A DNA stretch of 64,000 nt from positions 325,470-389,469 of the forward strand of contig AP029158.1 in assembly GCA_037076615.1 (NCBI GenBank), written 5' to 3'. The notes under the pieces are model-generated. The model worked only from the letters and a program-made list of their open reading frames with translations, did not search any database and was not told the origin of the DNA. Positions 28,208 to 63,294 of this stretch are shown here, piece after piece (the stretch's first letter is position 1; the number at the start of each line of letters is the position of its first letter). The position numbers were made by a program, and so were the translations under genes. Source of the DNA: Candidatus Parcubacteria bacterium (GTDB lineage: Bacteria > Patescibacteriota > Patescibacteriia > Patescibacteriales > UBA12465).

Positions 28208-28238
28208 AAAGAGGTGTTTTTAATAAACACCTCTTTTT
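28208..28238 (+). terminator. Intrinsic terminator after the FISUMP gene
   Basis: 12-bp stem AAAGAGGTGTTT / AAACACCTCTTT followed by a T-run. Confidence 0.8.
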
Positions 28239-28239
28239 C

Positions 28240-28268
28240 TTAACAAAAATTAAAAAAAATGCTAAAAT
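28240..28268 (+). promoter_or_regulatory. Extended -10 promoter, copy 1 (inside repeat unit 1)
   Basis: TTAACA, 17 nt ending in TGc, TAAAAT. Confidence 0.5.
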
Positions 28269-28295
28269 ACAAACATATATATATATTTCAAATTC

Positions 28296-28324
28296 TTAAC
28301 AAAAATTAAAAAAAATGCTAAAAT
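28296..28324 (+). promoter_or_regulatory. Extended -10 promoter, copy 2 (inside repeat unit 2)
   Basis: Identical to copy 1. It lies 43 nt before the ATG at 28367. Confidence 0.5.
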
Positions 28325-28366
28325 ACAAACATATATATATATTTCAAAAAATAACTAAAAAATATT

Positions 28367-30372
28367 ATGAAGAAAGTTTTTTGGGCTAAGTTTTTAAAAC
28401 TAATATTATTGGCTCTTTTTTTATTTTTACCAGCAGCTAGTAGAGCTAGCAATCCTTTTTTTACAATTACAAAAGGTTGGAGACAAGACTTTAATCGCTT
28501 GTTAACAGGAATAGGCGAAAAAGCTACTTCAAAAACCAATACCGAAGGCATCTATTCTTTTATTAATCGCTGTTCTGGTGATATTTTGTCGGTAATAATT
28601 CAGCAACTGAGTTTCAATCCTTTTTAAATAATCCTCCCGCTTGTGTTGAAAAAAATGAATGTGGTGATGGTGTTTGTCAGTCGTCAACAGAAAATCCGAC
28701 TAACTGCCCTGATGATTGTTATCGCCCGAGCGGTTATTGTGGTGATGGCATTTGTCAAACAAATAGCGGGGTTCAAGTCTGGGTCTCTTATAACCCCCCT
28801 AAAGAAAGTACTTATTGGGAAAAAACTTGCCGAGAGAAGACTAATCGCTGGATTTGGGTACCAATCGTAAATACTATTTTAGTTTGGACAGGAAACACTA
28901 GCCATATGGTTTGTGATGATGTTAAAAAGACCGTTAAAATTTATGGCGGTTATGTTGACGGCGGTGAAGCTTATACAGTAAGCGATAGCAGCAAACAAAC
29001 TGAGTGCAAACAAGATTGTGCTCCTCCTCCAACCCTTGGTTGTGGGACTTGCGGTTATAATGCAGAAGGGGAACTCTGTCCTAATAATTGTGGCGACAAA
29101 GGATATAACTTAGTTAATTGCTCTTTTAAGGCAGCGGTAAGCGTTACTGAATGCAAAAACGTAAACCCACTAATCCCTTTGGTTAAAAATAATAATAATT
29201 CGTTTTTAAAAAAATATTTTAGTGTTGCTTCCGCTTTAGCGTATATTGAACCAACTGGTGCTGGCACCATAGAAGATTGCATCACTTATCATACCGATGC
29301 TTACTGGACCTGCGATAATAGTGATGATTCTTCTTTGTGTGCCGCTGGGTATTATTGTACTAATGCTGGAGGTTTAAATACATCTTTTTGCCCCTCTGGT
29401 AAAACTTGTCAAATGATTACTTGTCCGGCAGGTAGTTTTTGTCCTAAAGGATCTTCTTATCCCCGATATTGTCCCTATAATTACTATAGCGATTCTGGTG
29501 CTTCAAGTTGTACACAATGTCCGACCGGAACTGGGACGATGACGGGTGGAGCGGCTGGTGTTGCCTCTTGTGAGCCACTTAATATTGCAAACGATGGCGT
29601 CTGTAATACCCTTGAAGATCCAACAAACTCTCCTCAAGATTGCCCAGATAACTTATCTGACTCTCGTCAAGCTGGATGGATTGGTGATGGGTTATGCACT
29701 GGTATTGAAACGATTGCGAATTCTTTGGATTGTTCTTGTGGTAACGGCGTCTGCGATGCTAACGAGAGTGACTTACTTTGTATAGCTGATTGTACTTGTC
29801 TGGATAATATTTGTGACACTGGGGAAACAAATAAATGTGCGGTTGGTGGCGTGACTCAAACTAATCCTGGTTGCTCAACGCTAGCAAACATCGATCGTTG
29901 TGGTGATGGTGTTTGTTCTACGGGTGAGAGCTATAATGAGACTTTAAAAAAGATTGTTTGTCAGGCTGATTGTTTTTGTGGTAACCGTGTTTGTGAGCCA
30001 GCAATTGGAGAAACCATGTCAACATGTTTTCGTGACTGTTCTTGTGGCAATGGTATTTGTGATGGGGTTGATACCAGATATAATTGCCTTCAAGATTGCT
30101 CCTGCGGTAACGGTACTTGCGAGCCTCAATATGGAGAAAATTGGAGAACTTGTCTTACCGACTGTCGTTGCGGCAATGGTATTTGTGACAGCTCTTACGG
30201 AGAAACTCCTTCTAATTGCTATATAGATTGCAGTGTTTGTGGTAATGGTGTTTGTGAATTTAGAGAGACTGCTACAAAACCAGTTCCACTAGGCTTCGTA
30301 TATTGTTACAATGATTGTAGTGATAATGAGTGTTTACCAGGGGAGCCGTGCCATATCATAAAAGAACAATAA
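28367..30372 (+). pseudogene. Secreted cysteine-rich repeat protein, reading frame interrupted by a 1-nt frame change near T5 tract 28621-28625 (pseudogene, phase variant, assembly error or -1 frameshift)
   Basis: The signal-peptide ORF (28367-28627) stops at TAA. The downstream frame is open from 28582 and encodes CGDGVCQ / CGDGICQ family motifs well before its first ATG at 28906. One extra T at 28621-28625 fuses the two into a protein of about 668 aa. Confidence 0.6.
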
Positions 30373-30381
30373 AACGTCAAT

Positions 30382-30819
30382 ATGAATAAAAAACAAAAAA
30401 TTATTTTTTTTGCAATTATCTTCTTCCTACTGCTTGGTTTAAGTTTTATTTTTTATAAAAATAAACAAAAACTCCCCGATGTAGAAAACGAAGCTAATGC
30501 AGAACAGCAAAATCTGGATCAGTCACCCGCTTACACTCCCACTGCTCGCGAAGCCAGTAACTGGAACGCTCCTTTTACTAAACAGATTCAAGTGGTTTTT
30601 GCTACTGAAGAAGAACGAGAACAAATGGGAATAAATGTTAGCCCTTTATTTGATCCGGCGCGTATTCAGGTTTTAGAGCGAGATGAGAATGGTCGGGTAA
30701 TTACCTATAAAAAGATTTATAACGATAATGAAATTATCCACGAATTATATCTCCCCACTGGAAGTTTAAGTGAAGGAGGAATTGTCCCAATAATTGAAGA
30801 GAGTGAAGAAAATATATAA
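30382..30819 (+). CDS. Membrane-anchored hypothetical protein
   Basis: 145-aa ORF 9 nt after the Cys-rich gene, with an N-terminal transmembrane helix (IIFFAIIFFLLLGLSFIFY). Confidence 0.5.
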   Translation: MNKKQKIIFFAIIFFLLLGLSFIFYKNKQKLPDVENEANAEQQNLDQSPAYTPTAREASNWNAPFTKQIQVVFATEEEREQMGINVSPLFDPARIQVLERDENGRVITYKKIYNDNEIIHELYLPTGSLSEGGIVPIIEESEENI

Positions 30820-30823
30820 CAGC

Positions 30824-30853
30824 TAAAAAAGCTCCCAGTCGGGAGCTTTTTTT
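30824..30853. terminator. Bidirectional intrinsic terminator
   Basis: AGCTCCC-AGTC-GGGAGCT stem flanked by an A-run and a T-run. Confidence 0.85.
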
Positions 30854-32219
30854 AAGCCTGTTTTTTAGGGTTAAAGCCTAAAACAGCCAGGAGCGACCCG
30901 GCAAGAATCCAGAAATTCCACTGCATAACCGCATCTTTAATCACATTATCGGTTAAACTGGCACCGAGAATTCCTAAAATAAAAATAGCAATAAAGAAGA
31001 TTAGCATTCTTAGGCGGGGGCGCTTTTCACACTTAAAGGCTAAAAAGAAGCGTCGCAGTAAGTCGGCATAAATTGCCAAATAACTTACCAAAAGAACAAC
31101 GCCACCCTCCAGCCAAACTCGCAGGTAATCATTATGCGGCTCGGTATCCATCATCAAACGAGGAATATTTTTTCCCAAAAAAACTGAAGCCGTCCCCGGA
31201 CCGTAACCAAGCCACGGGCTTTTTTTGATGTAACCGACAATGTCTCGCCACAAATCTAAGCGCCAGGAGGCGGATCCGGTAATCCCAATGCTGGATAAAG
31301 AATTTATGCGTTCTTGAAAGAAGGGCACAAAGGCATATATCAAAAGAAAGGTAAGAATACCGACGAGCAAGAGCTTTTTAAAATAAACAACACCGACTAC
31401 TATCAAAATACCGGCGAGAGCCAGCCAGGCAATGCGGGTGTAGGTGAAAATTAAAGGTACGAGAAAAAATAAACTTAAAAGTAGATAAGGCCAACGTTGA
31501 ACCGATTGTTTACGTAAATTTAAAACTAAAAACAGAGTTAAAGAAATTATTAAAACCAAATAAAGAGCGAGCATGTTTGGGTGAGTAAAAGTTCCGACCG
31601 CTCGCCATTGTTCGCCATCATAAAATCCGCCCCGATTAATTATTTGCTGCCAAGCCACGGCCGCCGGGACGATCGCCGTAAAAATCAAAGCTCGAATTAA
31701 ATTGGTTAATTTTTGAGGGGTGTTAAAAATAAGGTAACTGTAAATAAAGATGGAGACAAAGCTTAAGAGGCGGAAAAGATTAACCAAACTGGCGCCGCGA
31801 TCAAAGGAAATAAATATCGAAAGGATAATAGTTAAGCTTAAAAAAATTAGCCACGGATAAAAAATTTTCTGCTGCTGCGGCTTTAAAGGGTGGCGGTAAA
31901 GCTGATAAAAAGCCAAGACAATCGGCATCAAGCCTAAAATAAAAGTCAAAGTAATCTCTAGGGAACCTAAATTAAACAAGGCTAATTTACTACCAAAAGA
32001 ATCAAAAACGGTTCGTAAAAAAATCAAGGCAAAAAAGCCGGCTTGAGGATTAAAAAAGGACCAAACAAAAATAGCGATGGACGCTAATAAAAAAATTAGA
32101 CTTAAAGAATCGCCGGTCCAAAAGAGAGTTAGAAGCGTACCGCCGATTGCCAATAAACCCAAAGTAACTACCGCCGTTTGCGATAAGTCCGCTTTAGTCG
32201 CTTTATTCCTTTCAGTCAT
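30852..32219 (-). CDS. O-antigen ligase / polymerase family (Wzy_C-like) polytopic membrane protein
   Basis: At least 10 predicted transmembrane helices and a loop with TEPHNDYLRVWLEGG typical of the family. The start is set at ATG 32219 (MTERNK). Confidence 0.7.
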   Translation of the reverse strand: MTERNKATKADLSQTAVVTLGLLAIGGTLLTLFWTGDSLSLIFLLASIAIFVWSFFNPQAGFFALIFLRTVFDSFGSKLALFNLGSLEITLTFILGLMPIVLAFYQLYRHPLKPQQQKIFYPWLIFLSLTIILSIFISFDRGASLVNLFRLLSFVSIFIYSYLIFNTPQKLTNLIRALIFTAIVPAAVAWQQIINRGGFYDGEQWRAVGTFTHPNMLALYLVLIISLTLFLVLNLRKQSVQRWPYLLLSLFFLVPLIFTYTRIAWLALAGILIVVGVVYFKKLLLVGILTFLLIYAFVPFFQERINSLSSIGITGSASWRLDLWRDIVGYIKKSPWLGYGPGTASVFLGKNIPRLMMDTEPHNDYLRVWLEGGVVLLVSYLAIYADLLRRFFLAFKCEKRPRLRMLIFFIAIFILGILGASLTDNVIKDAVMQWNFWILAGSLLAVLGFNPKKQA

Positions 32220-39015: not shown

Positions 39016-39981
39016 TTATAGCCACTTATTTCGCTTAAAGAGCGATAAAAGGCCCAGTAGAGAGGCGAGCATAATACCGGTAATAATCCAAAAACCATTG
39101 GAGTGGTTGACGATTGGCATATCTTTGGCGTTCATTCCAAAGATTCCGGTGATTAAGGTTAAAGGTAACATCAAGACGGAGAAGATGGTAAGCATCATCA
39201 TAATATCGTTTGTCTTGTTGTTAAGCAGTGATTCATTGGTGTCATGTAGAGCTTCTACTAACTCACGTTGCATATCTAAAATATCCCAGATCTGCCGGGA
39301 GTGCTCCTCTAAATCTTCGTAGTGTCTTTGAATGGACTCACGTGGCACTAGATTACTTTTCATCTCCTGGAGAGATTGCATGATCGTGGCGTGGTTCTTG
39401 GTAATTTTGCGGACATTGATGATGTTGCGCCGGAGGGTTAATATTTTTCCGGCTGCTGCCTTGGGCTTACCATCAAAAATAATTTCTTCGGTCTCAGTAA
39501 TGTTAACACTGTTGTGATCGAGAATGTTATAGGTATCCCTGATTAGACGGCTAAGAAGTTCGTAAAGAAGCGTGCTGGAGCTTTCGGTTTGAAAAGCTAA
39601 TAATTCTTGAGGATGTTCCTGACAGTAAGTAAAAAATTTATTAAGCGGTTTTAAATTATTATTATGCAAAGTAATGAGATAACCGTGGCCAATAAAAAAT
39701 TCAATTTCTCCAGCCACAACTTTTTCGCCTTGGAAGGTAGGGAAGTGGAGAATGATAAAAATATAACCATCTTTTACCTCCACCATCGGCCGTTGGGCGA
39801 TATTGGTAGAAATAGAGGCTTGTAAATGGTCATCAGCAAAACCAAATTTTTTCTTAAAATAGTTTATTTCGTGGCGGCCGGCGTCAACAATATTTATCCA
39901 GCGTAACGCATAGCCGGGACTACTGGGGTTGTCAATTCGAACCTCTTGAATTCGTTTGGGAACCCGCTCTTTTTTGGTCAT
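39016..39981 (-). CDS. corA: CorA-family magnesium/cobalt transporter
   Basis: Two C-terminal transmembrane helices with the signature GIFGMN loop, and a typical length (321 aa). Confidence 0.9.
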   Translation of the reverse strand: MTKKERVPKRIQEVRIDNPSSPGYALRWINIVDAGRHEINYFKKKFGFADDHLQASISTNIAQRPMVEVKDGYIFIILHFPTFQGEKVVAGEIEFFIGHGYLITLHNNNLKPLNKFFTYCQEHPQELLAFQTESSSTLLYELLSRLIRDTYNILDHNSVNITETEEIIFDGKPKAAAGKILTLRRNIINVRKITKNHATIMQSLQEMKSNLVPRESIQRHYEDLEEHSRQIWDILDMQRELVEALHDTNESLLNNKTNDIMMMLTIFSVLMLPLTLITGIFGMNAKDMPIVNHSNGFWIITGIMLASLLGLLSLFKRNKWL

Positions 39982-40052
39982 ATTTCTTTACGAAAGTGAG
40001 TATTTATAATAAAATAAAGCCATTGACGCGATTATTTCTTAAAGTATATCAT

Positions 40053-59428: not shown

Positions 59429-60856
59429 TTAAGCTAAGCGCGGAAAAAGACTATCGCCTTTTTTTATTTGCGCCGCGCCGTATTGCGTTAACAGTTTTTC
59501 CGCCGCTATCGGTAAAAAAACCTGTAAATACCAAGCGGTATTTAAAATTGTTTGTGCTAAAGGAGTTAGGATCGGGCGGATTTCTTCAGGGTCACTTAAT
59601 TTCCAGGGGGCGGCGGCAGTTAATTTTTCATTGGCGCTTCTAACCTCCCGATTAAGAATTTCCCAGGCCTCATTAAACTTAAAATTATCTAAAGATTTCT
59701 TAAAGTGCTCATGCCAAGGTGCCGGAATTTGCGGACTTAAATTGGTAGCGAGTTCATTTTTTTCCAATAACGTGGCTACGCGGGCACTTAAGTTCCCTAA
59801 ACCATTAGCTAAATCAGAATTATAGCGGCGGACTAAATTATCTTCATTATAATCACCATCTTCAAAAGGAGGAATTTCCCCAGTCAGATAAAGACGAACG
59901 GCGGCGCTGTTATATTTTTCCACTTGCGCAAAAGGATCAATGGCGGTGCCGGCCGACTTAGAAATTTTTTCACCATTAGTCGTTAAAAAACCAAAGACTG
60001 CTACCTGTTTGGTATTAGGTAAACCTAAAGCCAGGAGCATCGCCTGCCACATCGCGCTCTGTTGACGAAGATTATCTTTACCGCAAACCTGAAGACCAGG
60101 CCAAAAATCTTGATAGCGACCACCCTCCTGCGGCCAACCCAGAACCGAAATATAATTAACTAAAGCATCAAACCAGACATAAATTACTTGTTCGGGATCA
60201 CCGGGAACCGGTACGCCGTTAGGCATCTTGGCCGCTAAGCGCGAGATACTAAAATCTTTAAGTCCGCTTGAGACAAAATTGAAAATTTCTTTTTGACGAT
60301 GAGCTGGTAAAACAAAATTCGGCTGGGCGGTATAAAGGTCTAGTAAAGGTTGTTGATATTTAGAAAAACGAAAAAAATAATTTTCCTCATCTACGATTTC
60401 TAATTCGCGGTTCGGGTGCAAAGGACAACGACCATCAACTAATTCGGAATCCGTTTTTTCCAGTTCGCAGCCGACACAATATTTTACTTGATACCGTTTT
60501 TTATAAATATCACCATTGGCTTCTGCGCGGCGCCAAAACTCTTGGACGGCCGCCACATGATTATCATCAGAAGTGCGAATAAAATCGGTGACACTAATTT
60601 CTAAAACTTGATGTAATTCTTTAAACCGCTCGGCATAAGGCGTGCAGTAAGCGCGCGGGCTAAGGCCGGCGGCTTCGGCTTGCTGATAGATTTTTAAGCC
60701 GTGCTCATCGGTGCCGGTGCTAAAAACAACCTCCTCACCCAAAAGGCGATGCCAACGGGCTAAAACATCAGCTTTAATTATCTCGGCGGCAAAGCCAATG
60801 TGGGGGTCGGAATTGGTATAGGGTAAAGTGGTGGTGATGTAAAATTTTTCGGACAT
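59429..60856 (-). CDS. metG: Methionyl-tRNA synthetase (short form)
   Basis: TTTLPYTNSDPHIGF (HIGH region), a CxxC ... C..H knuckle and KISKS. The start is set at ATG 60856 (MSEKFY), 1 nt after the rsmI stop. Confidence 0.92.
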   Translation of the reverse strand: MSEKFYITTTLPYTNSDPHIGFAAEIIKADVLARWHRLLGEEVVFSTGTDEHGLKIYQQAEAAGLSPRAYCTPYAERFKELHQVLEISVTDFIRTSDDNHVAAVQEFWRRAEANGDIYKKRYQVKYCVGCELEKTDSELVDGRCPLHPNRELEIVDEENYFFRFSKYQQPLLDLYTAQPNFVLPAHRQKEIFNFVSSGLKDFSISRLAAKMPNGVPVPGDPEQVIYVWFDALVNYISVLGWPQEGGRYQDFWPGLQVCGKDNLRQQSAMWQAMLLALGLPNTKQVAVFGFLTTNGEKISKSAGTAIDPFAQVEKYNSAAVRLYLTGEIPPFEDGDYNEDNLVRRYNSDLANGLGNLSARVATLLEKNELATNLSPQIPAPWHEHFKKSLDNFKFNEAWEILNREVRSANEKLTAAAPWKLSDPEEIRPILTPLAQTILNTAWYLQVFLPIAAEKLLTQYGAAQIKKGDSLFPRLA

Positions 60857-60857
60857 A

Positions 60858-61577
60858 TCAATTATCGTCTTTATTAGAATGTTTAACTTGGCGAAACAGG
60901 ACAACAAATTCACCTTTGGCCATATCGAGATCGTTATTTAACTGCGCTGCTAGTTCTGCGGGACGACCGAAATAGGTCTGTTCAAACATTTTAGTCAACT
61001 CGCGGCCAATCATCAATTCTAGTTCGGCTTGATGCTCTTTTTCTAAAATTTGGAGCTCGCTTAATAGTTTGGCCAAGCGATGTTTGGACTCATAGATAAC
61101 GACCGGATAACGCTGTTCTAATAATTCTTTTAATCGGGTTTGTCGCCCTTTTTTATGAGGTAAAAAGCCGAAAAAAGAGAAACGATCAACCGGCCAACCC
61201 GATAAGGGCAAGGCGCAAATAACCGCGCTGGCACCCGGCAAACTAAAGATCTTCGCCTCCTCGCCAAACTCCGCGCGCACGGCGGCGACCAAAGCAGCGC
61301 CGGGGTCAGAAATTCCGGGTGTGCCAGCATCAGAAACAAGAGCCAAATCCTTCCCCGCCCGCAAAGCGTCTAAAATCTCGTGAAAGCGGCGCGCTTCAGA
61401 GTGCTGATGAAAAGATTTAGTCGGTGTTTTTATTTGATAATGGTCTAAAAGTTTTTTAGTGTTTCTGGTGTCTTCGCACAACACCAAATCGACCTCACCG
61501 AGAATACGGTGAGCGCGATAAGTTAAATCTTCTAAATTGCCAATTGGCGTGGCCACCAAATATAGAGTTCCGGGCAT
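60858..61577 (-). CDS. rsmI: 16S rRNA (cytidine1402-2'-O)-methyltransferase
   Basis: GTLYLVATPIGNLEDLT N-terminus and a tetrapyrrole-methylase fold pattern. The start is set at ATG 61577. It ends in TGA. Confidence 0.88.
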   Translation of the reverse strand: MPGTLYLVATPIGNLEDLTYRAHRILGEVDLVLCEDTRNTKKLLDHYQIKTPTKSFHQHSEARRFHEILDALRAGKDLALVSDAGTPGISDPGAALVAAVRAEFGEEAKIFSLPGASAVICALPLSGWPVDRFSFFGFLPHKKGRQTRLKELLEQRYPVVIYESKHRLAKLLSELQILEKEHQAELELMIGRELTKMFEQTYFGRPAELAAQLNNDLDMAKGEFVVLFRQVKHSNKDDN

Positions 61578-61581
61578 ATTT

Positions 61582-63294
61582 TTAATCCATGGTATCGCGG
61601 CGTTCGCGCGTATAACGAGTCCAATCTTCCAAAACTTCAATAATTACTTTAAAGGGTGCCTCAATAATAAAGTCAAAGAAGAAGACAAAAACATTAAGTT
61701 TGGAGGCTTGTCCGGAAAGCCAGCGACCGACTAAAACAATCGGGGTATAAAATAAATCTAAAATAAAAGTAAAGAAGTTTTCTTTGCGCGGCACGACAAT
61801 TAAGTCCTTGACTCCCCGAGTAGTCACCAAACTAAAGAAGCTCACAAAGGCTAAGAAGAATAAGAAAATGATAATACTGACCCAGTTAAACTGAATAAAC
61901 TCCAGCGCTCTAACAATTAAATAAACGCTAAAAACTAAAGCGGCACTATAAATCAGATTGAAAATAAAGCTGACAATTTTCTTCCTTTGCGCACGTGGGC
62001 GAATTTCCAGGGGCGCTTTACGCTCATAACCTTTAATAAACAACTCTTTAATCCCTTCAATAATTTTATTAGTATTGGCGTCGCCGGGAGTACGGGTAAA
62101 TAAAACGATCACAAACAGCAGTAAGGCCGGAAAAATGATATTAATAAGTAAGGAGATGGGGTTAATGGGCTCACTAAATAACTTGGTGGCGGGCACCTCT
62201 AGTAAGACGACAAAAACTGATTTAGTGATAAAGATATAAATAATGCTGCGCACGGCCGCCCGCCAGAGTCTTTTTTTGGCGGTGGTATATTTAGCGGTAC
62301 AAACTTTACGCACCCGGCCCCAAAACTTTTGTTCGTCGTAATAGATTTCGTTATAAAGCTTAACCGGATCCTCCTCAATGGTTTCGGCCATCACTTTGGA
62401 GTAGAGCGCATATTTCTTCGTCACCCGATCCAGTTGCCTAACTAAAGGATGATTGATTTGGCGCTTTATTTCTAAGCGCAGGGTACGGGCCCCGGCAATC
62501 GCTTTCCCTAAAACCTCCTCATTATATTCACCAGTCGCCCAGTTGTCGTTGTAATACTTAAATAAAACATAGGCGAGCATATCTTCATCAAAACGCGCAT
62601 AGGTGCGACAAATACTTAAGTAAATCTGAATTTCCCGCTCCGCTTCATATTTTTTATAGGCGGGGCTAAGAGCAATATTTTCGCTTAAAAAATCATAAAG
62701 GTTACTCATCATTGCCTGTCGAAAACGGTTAGGAGTCAAATTCTCTTCCACTTCACAAGCGGCAATCCCCATTAACCAATCAGTAATCTTACTTTTCTCA
62801 CTAAAGAGATCTTTAACTTTGCGAACATCGGCCTTGATATTCATCTCGGCGTTAACCTGCTCTAAACAGGTATCGTGGAGTAAAAGATATTTTTTTAAAA
62901 TGACGGCCACTTCCCCGATTTTACTCTCCGGCAACTCGCCATTAGCCAAATAACCGGCTCGGATCAGTTCCGTCAGTAAATGTTGACTGATTGCTTCCGG
63001 GTTACGACGGGAGCGAGTGGTTTCAATCACCACCTTGCGCTTCAAAATTCTAAAAATGGCACTTTTTCTAATCAAACTCTCCTCGCCGTATTGAACGGCG
63101 TTCCGGATTTTTTCGTAAATAAAAGCCACCCGAGAAATGACGGTAGAAACAGTAATTCGCGGCGCATCAACATCATTAATCCCTGGAGTTGGCTGCTGGC
63201 GCGTATAAAGCACCTGAAATAGGCGTTTAGCGCTCTCATTAATCTCGGCCCCGCGACTTAAAGAAGCCTGTTTGATCAAGTTTGGACTAACCAT
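61582..63294 (-). CDS. Hypothetical polytopic membrane protein with an N-terminal cytoplasmic domain of about 340 aa
   Basis: 570-aa ORF with at least four C-terminal transmembrane helices. It is the first gene of a tightly packed 6-gene minus-strand operon. No motif was recognised. Confidence 0.5.
   Translation of the reverse strand: MVSPNLIKQASLSRGAEINESAKRLFQVLYTRQQPTPGINDVDAPRITVSTVISRVAFIYEKIRNAVQYGEESLIRKSAIFRILKRKVVIETTRSRRNPEAISQHLLTELIRAGYLANGELPESKIGEVAVILKKYLLLHDTCLEQVNAEMNIKADVRKVKDLFSEKSKITDWLMGIAACEVEENLTPNRFRQAMMSNLYDFLSENIALSPAYKKYEAEREIQIYLSICRTYARFDEDMLAYVLFKYYNDNWATGEYNEEVLGKAIAGARTLRLEIKRQINHPLVRQLDRVTKKYALYSKVMAETIEEDPVKLYNEIYYDEQKFWGRVRKVCTAKYTTAKKRLWRAAVRSIIYIFITKSVFVVLLEVPATKLFSEPINPISLLINIIFPALLLFVIVLFTRTPGDANTNKIIEGIKELFIKGYERKAPLEIRPRAQRKKIVSFIFNLIYSAALVFSVYLIVRALEFIQFNWVSIIIFLFFLAFVSFFSLVTTRGVKDLIVVPRKENFFTFILDLFYTPIVLVGRWLSGQASKLNVFVFFFDFIIEAPFKVIIEVLEDWTRYTRERRDTMD

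Follow-up and report, generated by a model that had tools for sequence, protein, structure and literature searches.

The question raised by this locus is whether two neighbouring open reading frames (ORFs) on the plus strand of a 64-kb stretch of DNA, referred to below as the window, are separate genes or the pieces of one gene that has lost its frame. The upstream ORF (28367-28627) runs from an ATG at 28367 to a TAA at 28625-28627, encodes 86 aa and has a typical Sec signal peptide (MKKVFWAKFLKLILLALFLFLPAASRA|S) at its N-terminus. The frame of the downstream ORF (28906-30372) is open back to 28582, directly 3' of the TGA at 28579-28581, with no ATG, GTG or TTG in that frame between 28582 and 28906, and the leader upstream of the ATG at 28906 encodes ...NNPPACVEKNECGDGVCQ... 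Of the 52 ORFs with 120 aa or more in the 64-kb window, none has a longer start-less open leader than these 324 nt, the median being 12 nt; by our own rough estimate, a run of 108 codons free of stops would have a chance of ~6e-4 at 38% GC, and the length of the leader exceeds chance. The original prediction held that a 1-nt frame change divides one gene into the two ORFs, with the signal-peptide ORF ending at a TAA that is overlapped by a T5 run (28621-28625), and that a -1 change would restore a preprotein of about 668 aa. The open frame without a start codon and the overlap of the T5 run with the stop were both confirmed in the sequence, and the arithmetic is correct, a -1 change anywhere in 28582-28624 giving 668 codons. 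Elsewhere in the 64-kb window, no start-less open leader was found to belong to a split gene. The second and third longest leaders are those of 165 nt (1-165, before a GTG at 166) and 138 nt (39858-39995, before a GTG at 39996); the former lies at the window edge and may belong to a gene starting outside the window, and the latter overlaps a divergent gene (39016-39981) and is probably due to chance. The overlapping ORFs at 59429-63294 are distinct genes, encoding MetRS, a TP_methylase-family methyltransferase and one protein of unknown identity.

A search with the fused protein returned eight full-length single-ORF homologues of 664-690 aa (88-33% identity, 85-100% query coverage), all colinear with the query across the junction in the alignment. 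Altogether, more than 20 homologues, close ones as well as distant ones, consist of one ORF of 664-690 aa and share the gene neighbourhood, which upholds the view of one gene split by a 1-nt frame change, and the stretch upstream of the ATG at 28906, which had been said to encode the family motif, proved to be conserved at the protein level in all homologues once they were aligned. The two 90%-identity clusters that hold the fragments from the window contain 17 further full-length members (667-673 aa), and the shorter members of these clusters are only contig-edge partials and the 86-aa and 488-aa pieces of this genome. When one genome per GTDB species was scanned, two Patescibacteria MAGs were found to carry the intact gene, as a 672-aa ORF in JAQUHX010000002 (locus L008) and a 673-aa ORF in JARRBY010000003 (locus L009), both in the same synteny, between an upstream gene with a Fib_succ_major domain and a downstream 145-aa gene. 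In JGI metagenomes, the exact junction pattern with a variable T run had no match, and a protein-guided scan found three loci, of which two that span the tract (L090 and L091) are both in frame and the third (L092) covers the 3' end only. Judged by these alignments, 28367-30372 is a single 668-codon gene and not two ORFs. Two observations concern the taxonomic labels of relatives. A 2.6-kb contig (L010, JBAZCK010000114.1) binned as 'Acholeplasmataceae' is probably a binning contaminant, because it is 93-96% identical to the Patescibacteria locus. Full-length homologues with 33-39% identity (L011-L013) come from MAGs labelled 'uncultured Gammaproteobacteria', a label that looks doubtful.

The position of the frame break differs from that originally proposed. 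The frame change had been placed at the T5 run next to the stop codon, and this join was used for the first search query; it was abandoned after protein and DNA alignments, which moved the junction to 28584-28587. In the protein alignment, the frame-0 tail LSVIIQQLSFNPF has no counterpart in any homologue, and the stretch FVGNNSATEFQSF read in the -1 frame does have a counterpart in them; the -1 frame peptide FVGNNSATEFQSFLNNPPAC is identical to the corresponding stretch of the homologue P0002 and bears the family-invariant residues N82, E87, F91 and P96 (P0001 numbering). This puts the break before 28594, and its exact position came from the DNA alignment: the window reads TGATA-TTTTGTCGG and the intact alleles L003 and L004 read TGATATTTTTGTCGG, the single gap falling in the T run at 28584-28587 (plus strand). 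The lesion thus changes GAT ATT TTT GTC to GATATTTTGTC, an ancestral T5 (ATT TTT, Ile-Phe) having become T4, and it lies ~38 nt upstream of the site first proposed, at the 5' edge of the 28582-28624 overlap. The T5 tract at 28621-28625 (CCTTTTTAAAT) that adjoins the premature TAA is unaltered wild-type sequence on the same strand; L003, L004, L088 and L089, all of them intact, have an identical tract and read it as TCC TTT TTA AAT, encoding S-F-L-N. With the lesion at 28584-28587, it follows that the proposed junction peptide ...SFNPF-LNNPPAC... is not part of the ancestral protein, which reads ...CSGDI-F-VGNNSATEFQSFLNNPPAC... instead.

Three segments of the plus strand can thereby be told apart. 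The 5' part of the gene in its original frame (28367-28585) comprises codons 1-73, that is, the signal peptide and the sequence leading to ...FINRCSGDI, and these 73 residues are identical to those of the homologues P0041 and P0023. It is followed by the out-of-frame tail LSVIIQQLSFNPF (28586-28627), a product of the deletion, which ends at the TAA. The remainder of the gene (28588-30372) lies in the -1 frame and holds 594 codons, from VGNNSATEFQSFLNNPPAC... to the stop at 30370-30372, including those for the invariant N82, E87, F91 and P96; no second lesion was found in these 594 codons, and their product is 100% identical to P0041. When one T is added at 28584-28587, the translation matches P0041 at 668 of 668 positions. 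The gene for P0041 lies on an independent contig from Logan, ERR13731099_56290 (locus L088), and over the 3.5 kb from 28319 to 31820 the missing T is the only difference between this contig and the window. T5 is also present at locus L089 from sample SRR24962750. Among 11 DNA-level alleles of close relatives, all have T5 except L005, which has T7, and in every one of them reading continues for 590-601 codons to the stop. T4 was seen only in the window and in its twin Logan contig from DRR520374, and distant homologues read TATTTC at this position, so that the T tract is not conserved.

With the gene identified, its lesion placed to one T and an otherwise identical intact allele observed, the single-T deletion is probably a real and very recent loss-of-function allele of one 668-codon gene, a nascent pseudogene. 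A recent pseudogene was among the alternatives of the original prediction, and it has become the best reading. Replication slippage in a short homopolymer would have lost one T from the T5 of Ile73-Phe74. Because of the change from T5 to T4 at 28584-28587, translation from the ATG at 28367 would leave the frame of the gene after codon 73, read 13 unrelated codons and stop at the TAA at 28625-28627, yielding the 86-aa product, and the remaining 594 codons would be left intact without a start codon or signal peptide. The deletion would in this way abolish the secreted protein and give a strain-level loss-of-function allele of a variable surface or secreted protein. The lack of a second lesion in the gene fits a very recent event, and would equally fit an artefact or a reversible switch. 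The gene family is under purifying selection (dN/dS 0.05-0.34). Relaxed selection in the lineage of the window was considered and rejected, its lineage-specific codon changes being 12 synonymous and 12 non-synonymous with no decay, in a test of little power in which many sites are recombinant.

The repaired product is predicted to be a Sec-secreted Cys-rich repeat protein of 668 aa, with an N-terminal signal peptide, 68 Cys (10.2%) and at least eight repeats of the form C-G-[DN]-G-x-C-x(3-16)-C-x(2,3)-D-C, most of them in the C-terminal third. Its predicted location and its composition suggest a disulfide-rich extracellular or surface protein. The product falls into no known family: it has no match in Pfam, even at E up to 5, or in NCBIfam, the best hit of a PDB profile search is not significant (E = 0.75), and an AlphaFold2 model of P0001 built from an eight-sequence alignment is unusable (mean pLDDT 37, pTM 0.18). 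In Myxococcota, DPANN archaea and other MAGs there are proteins with similarity confined to the repeats. Ephrin-receptor-like Cys repeats were matched at E = 0.93, which is no more than a lead.

The locus itself is variable. Its neighbours are genes for GHL15 and Fib_succ_major proteins, a Wzy_C O-antigen-ligase-like gene, GT4 glycosyltransferase genes and a DUF4012 gene, and they fit a cell-envelope locus of a CPR (Patescibacteria/Parcubacteria) genome. Always 3' of the Cys-rich gene on the plus strand lies the 145-aa gene (30382-30819), which has an N-terminal transmembrane segment and belongs to no family. The window is 97-100% identical to L003 on both flanks of the locus. Between two crossovers, a 2.27-kb block is 95-100% identical to L008, the backbone of which is only ~75% identical to the window. 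The 5' crossover lies at 28636-28646, where the two types share CCCGCTTGTGT between the last L003-type site at 28635 and the first L008-type site at 28647, and the 3' crossover lies at 30909-30911, between the last L008-type site at 30908 and the first L003-type site at 30912. The block runs from about codon 91 of the gene through the whole 145-aa gene into the last codons of Wzy_C, and it looks like a homologous exchange with sharp ends. A chimeric join of two strains in the assembly was considered and rejected: the parental types share only 11 nt at the junction, and the hybrid occurs intact in three other samples (L088, L089 and P0040). Since the hybrid is intact in these three, the exchange is older than the frameshift and unrelated to it.

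Upstream of the gene on the plus strand, a perfect 56-nt tandem duplication (28237-28348) consists of copies at 28237-28292 and 28293-28348, each with a predicted strong sigma-70-like promoter (TTAACA-17-TAAAAT) with an upstream TG (28240-28268 and 28296-28324). The closest backbone relatives, L003 and L004, have a single copy of the unit. The Logan contigs L001, L088 and L089 all stop at the same base in copy 2, 48 nt upstream of the ATG, as expected of a repeat longer than the k-mer of the assembler, so that the duplication is probably also present in samples carrying the intact allele. Further upstream, a 12-bp perfect hairpin (AAAGAGGTGTTT / AAACACCTCTTT) flanked by A and T runs (28208-28236) is kept with compensatory changes in an alignment with L008, L009 and L005; it follows the Fib_succ_major gene and probably acts as an intrinsic terminator in both directions.

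The first alternative to a real loss-of-function allele is that the organism truly has T5 and an intact gene, one T having dropped out through a homopolymer miscall in the consensus or an error of assembly or polishing. In favour of this, the lesion alters the length of a homopolymer by a single base, the remaining gene is 100% identical to the intact allele, and the 717,294-bp single contig suggests the use of long reads, of which homopolymer indels are the typical error. However, a Logan k-mer-based assembly of DRR520374, made with a different assembler, matches the window exactly over 7 kb and also has T4; an exact match of this length implies accurate reads, although the Logan contig may share reads with the deposited genome and is to that extent not fully independent. 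The sole contig found that encodes P0041 comes from ERR13731099 and not from DRR520374. Moreover, longer tracts in the same gene (T7 twice and A7 twice) are intact, and no other frame-breaking indel was found in the ~9.7 kb of near-identical backbone shared with L003, where all other coding indels are multiples of 3, nor were other genes broken at homopolymers elsewhere in the window. This indel pattern argues against systematic homopolymer error, and an error at this one homopolymer is on balance rather unlikely; a mixed T4/T5 population also keeps some probability. Two other 1-nt indels relative to L003, at 25665 and 33660, are both intergenic, as is a 1-nt homopolymer length difference relative to L088 at 33519; in this lineage, therefore, natural polymorphism through short-homopolymer indels is common.

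Alternatively, the T tract might act as a reversible switch (T5 ON, T4 OFF) of a variable surface protein, the switch having been OFF when this genome was sampled. Different samples carry a T4 and a T5 allele with no other difference over 3.5 kb, and because of this identity a phase-variable or contingency locus keeps some probability; the tract is also close to the 5' end of the coding sequence, in a gene for a secreted protein, and the 2.27-kb recombination block and the promoter duplication make the locus highly variable. On the other hand, appreciable slippage at contingency loci usually needs tracts of roughly 7-8 nt, and a tract of 5 nt is well below this length; the lengths found are T5 and T4, with T7 in L005 only. 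Only one of ~12 DNA-level alleles, and one of ~20 at the protein level, is OFF, and the only length difference among otherwise identical alleles is this one T4 against T5. The tract arises simply from Leu/Ile-Phe codons in an AT-rich genome, distant homologues having TATTTC, and the longer T7 and A7 tracts of the gene show no variation. A reversible switch is accordingly unlikely. A broader version, in which a low-frequency reversible switch at the Ile-Phe T tract, body-swapping recombination, promoter duplication and perhaps rescue at a shifty stop together would make a contingency or antigenic-variation-like locus of an episymbiotic CPR bacterium, is decidedly unlikely.

The least probable alternative, that a -1 ribosomal slip of tRNA-Phe on U UUU UAA (28621-28627) or of tRNA-Leu on U UUG (28585-28588) rescues some full-length protein, is very improbable, since all 11 DNA-level alleles and the more than 20 protein homologues stay in frame, so that none of them needs a frameshift and nothing here has evolved for recoding. 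In its favour, any -1 shift in 28582-28624 gives the full-length protein, and at CCU UUU UAA the P-site tRNA-Phe re-pairs perfectly in the -1 frame with a slowly decoded stop in the A site; such 'shifty stops' reportedly gave low-level frameshifting in E. coli (Weiss et al. 1987), so that background -1 slippage at U UUU UAA is plausible on mechanistic grounds. However, this context is unchanged wild-type sequence that is read in frame in the relatives, and it is the sole slippery context in 28582-28627, a single-tRNA site, the X XXY YYZ heptamer being absent from both sites in frame 0 of that interval. Downstream RNA folding is ordinary (z-scores -1.3, -1.1 and -0.1), no Rfam frameshift element around the overlap matched at the family threshold, and a slip at the stop would replace 13 residues, among them the family-invariant N82, E87 and F91. 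Programmed -1 frameshifting at a shifty stop, which the original prediction had also put forward, thus finds neither a homologue that needs it nor a stimulatory element. If rescue by recoding were true, a peptide GDI[L/F]VGNNSATEF or SFNPFLNNPPAC would be expected.

Taken as a loss-of-function allele, the locus is an ordinary single-base frameshift allele of mainly annotation value, with no new mechanism. In the deposited annotation the two pieces stand as unrelated hypothetical proteins, BFD25010.1 (86 aa) and BFD25011.1 (488 aa), which should be merged and flagged as one frameshifted gene. The locus would also illustrate cleanly a loss-of-function allele that is very fresh and has an intact twin in other samples, and a variable, recombining, Patescibacteria-specific family fits strain-level turnover of surface or host-interaction proteins. 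No mention of the run and isolate identifiers was found in the literature.

Among known systems, programmed -1 frameshifting, as at the A AAA AAG of dnaX and in the transposases of IS elements, resembles this locus in that the 0 and -1 frames overlap and a U-run stands directly before the stop. However, there is no heptamer, stimulatory structure or upstream Shine-Dalgarno-like stimulator here, the true break lies 38 nt upstream of the U-run, and conservation of the frameshift is lacking, since every relative is in frame. Contingency genes based on simple sequence repeats, such as the poly-G or poly-C tracts in surface genes of Neisseria, Haemophilus and Campylobacter, share with it a homopolymer near the 5' end of a coding sequence for a secreted or surface protein, otherwise identical alleles of ON and OFF length and a hypervariable recombining locus, but the tract here is 5 nt long, is OFF once in ~12-20 alleles and is absent from distant homologues. 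Single-base indels in short homopolymers are the commonest class of gene-disrupting mutation in bacterial genomes, and frameshift pseudogenes of this kind offer the closest likeness: two adjacent same-strand ORFs, both colinear with one intact homologue, are separated by a 1-nt homopolymer change that could be pinpointed against an intact allele, the remaining gene is intact and an intact twin allele exists in the population. The locus differs from them in belonging to an uncharacterised CPR family and in that the event appears unusually fresh, with zero other differences in 3.5 kb.
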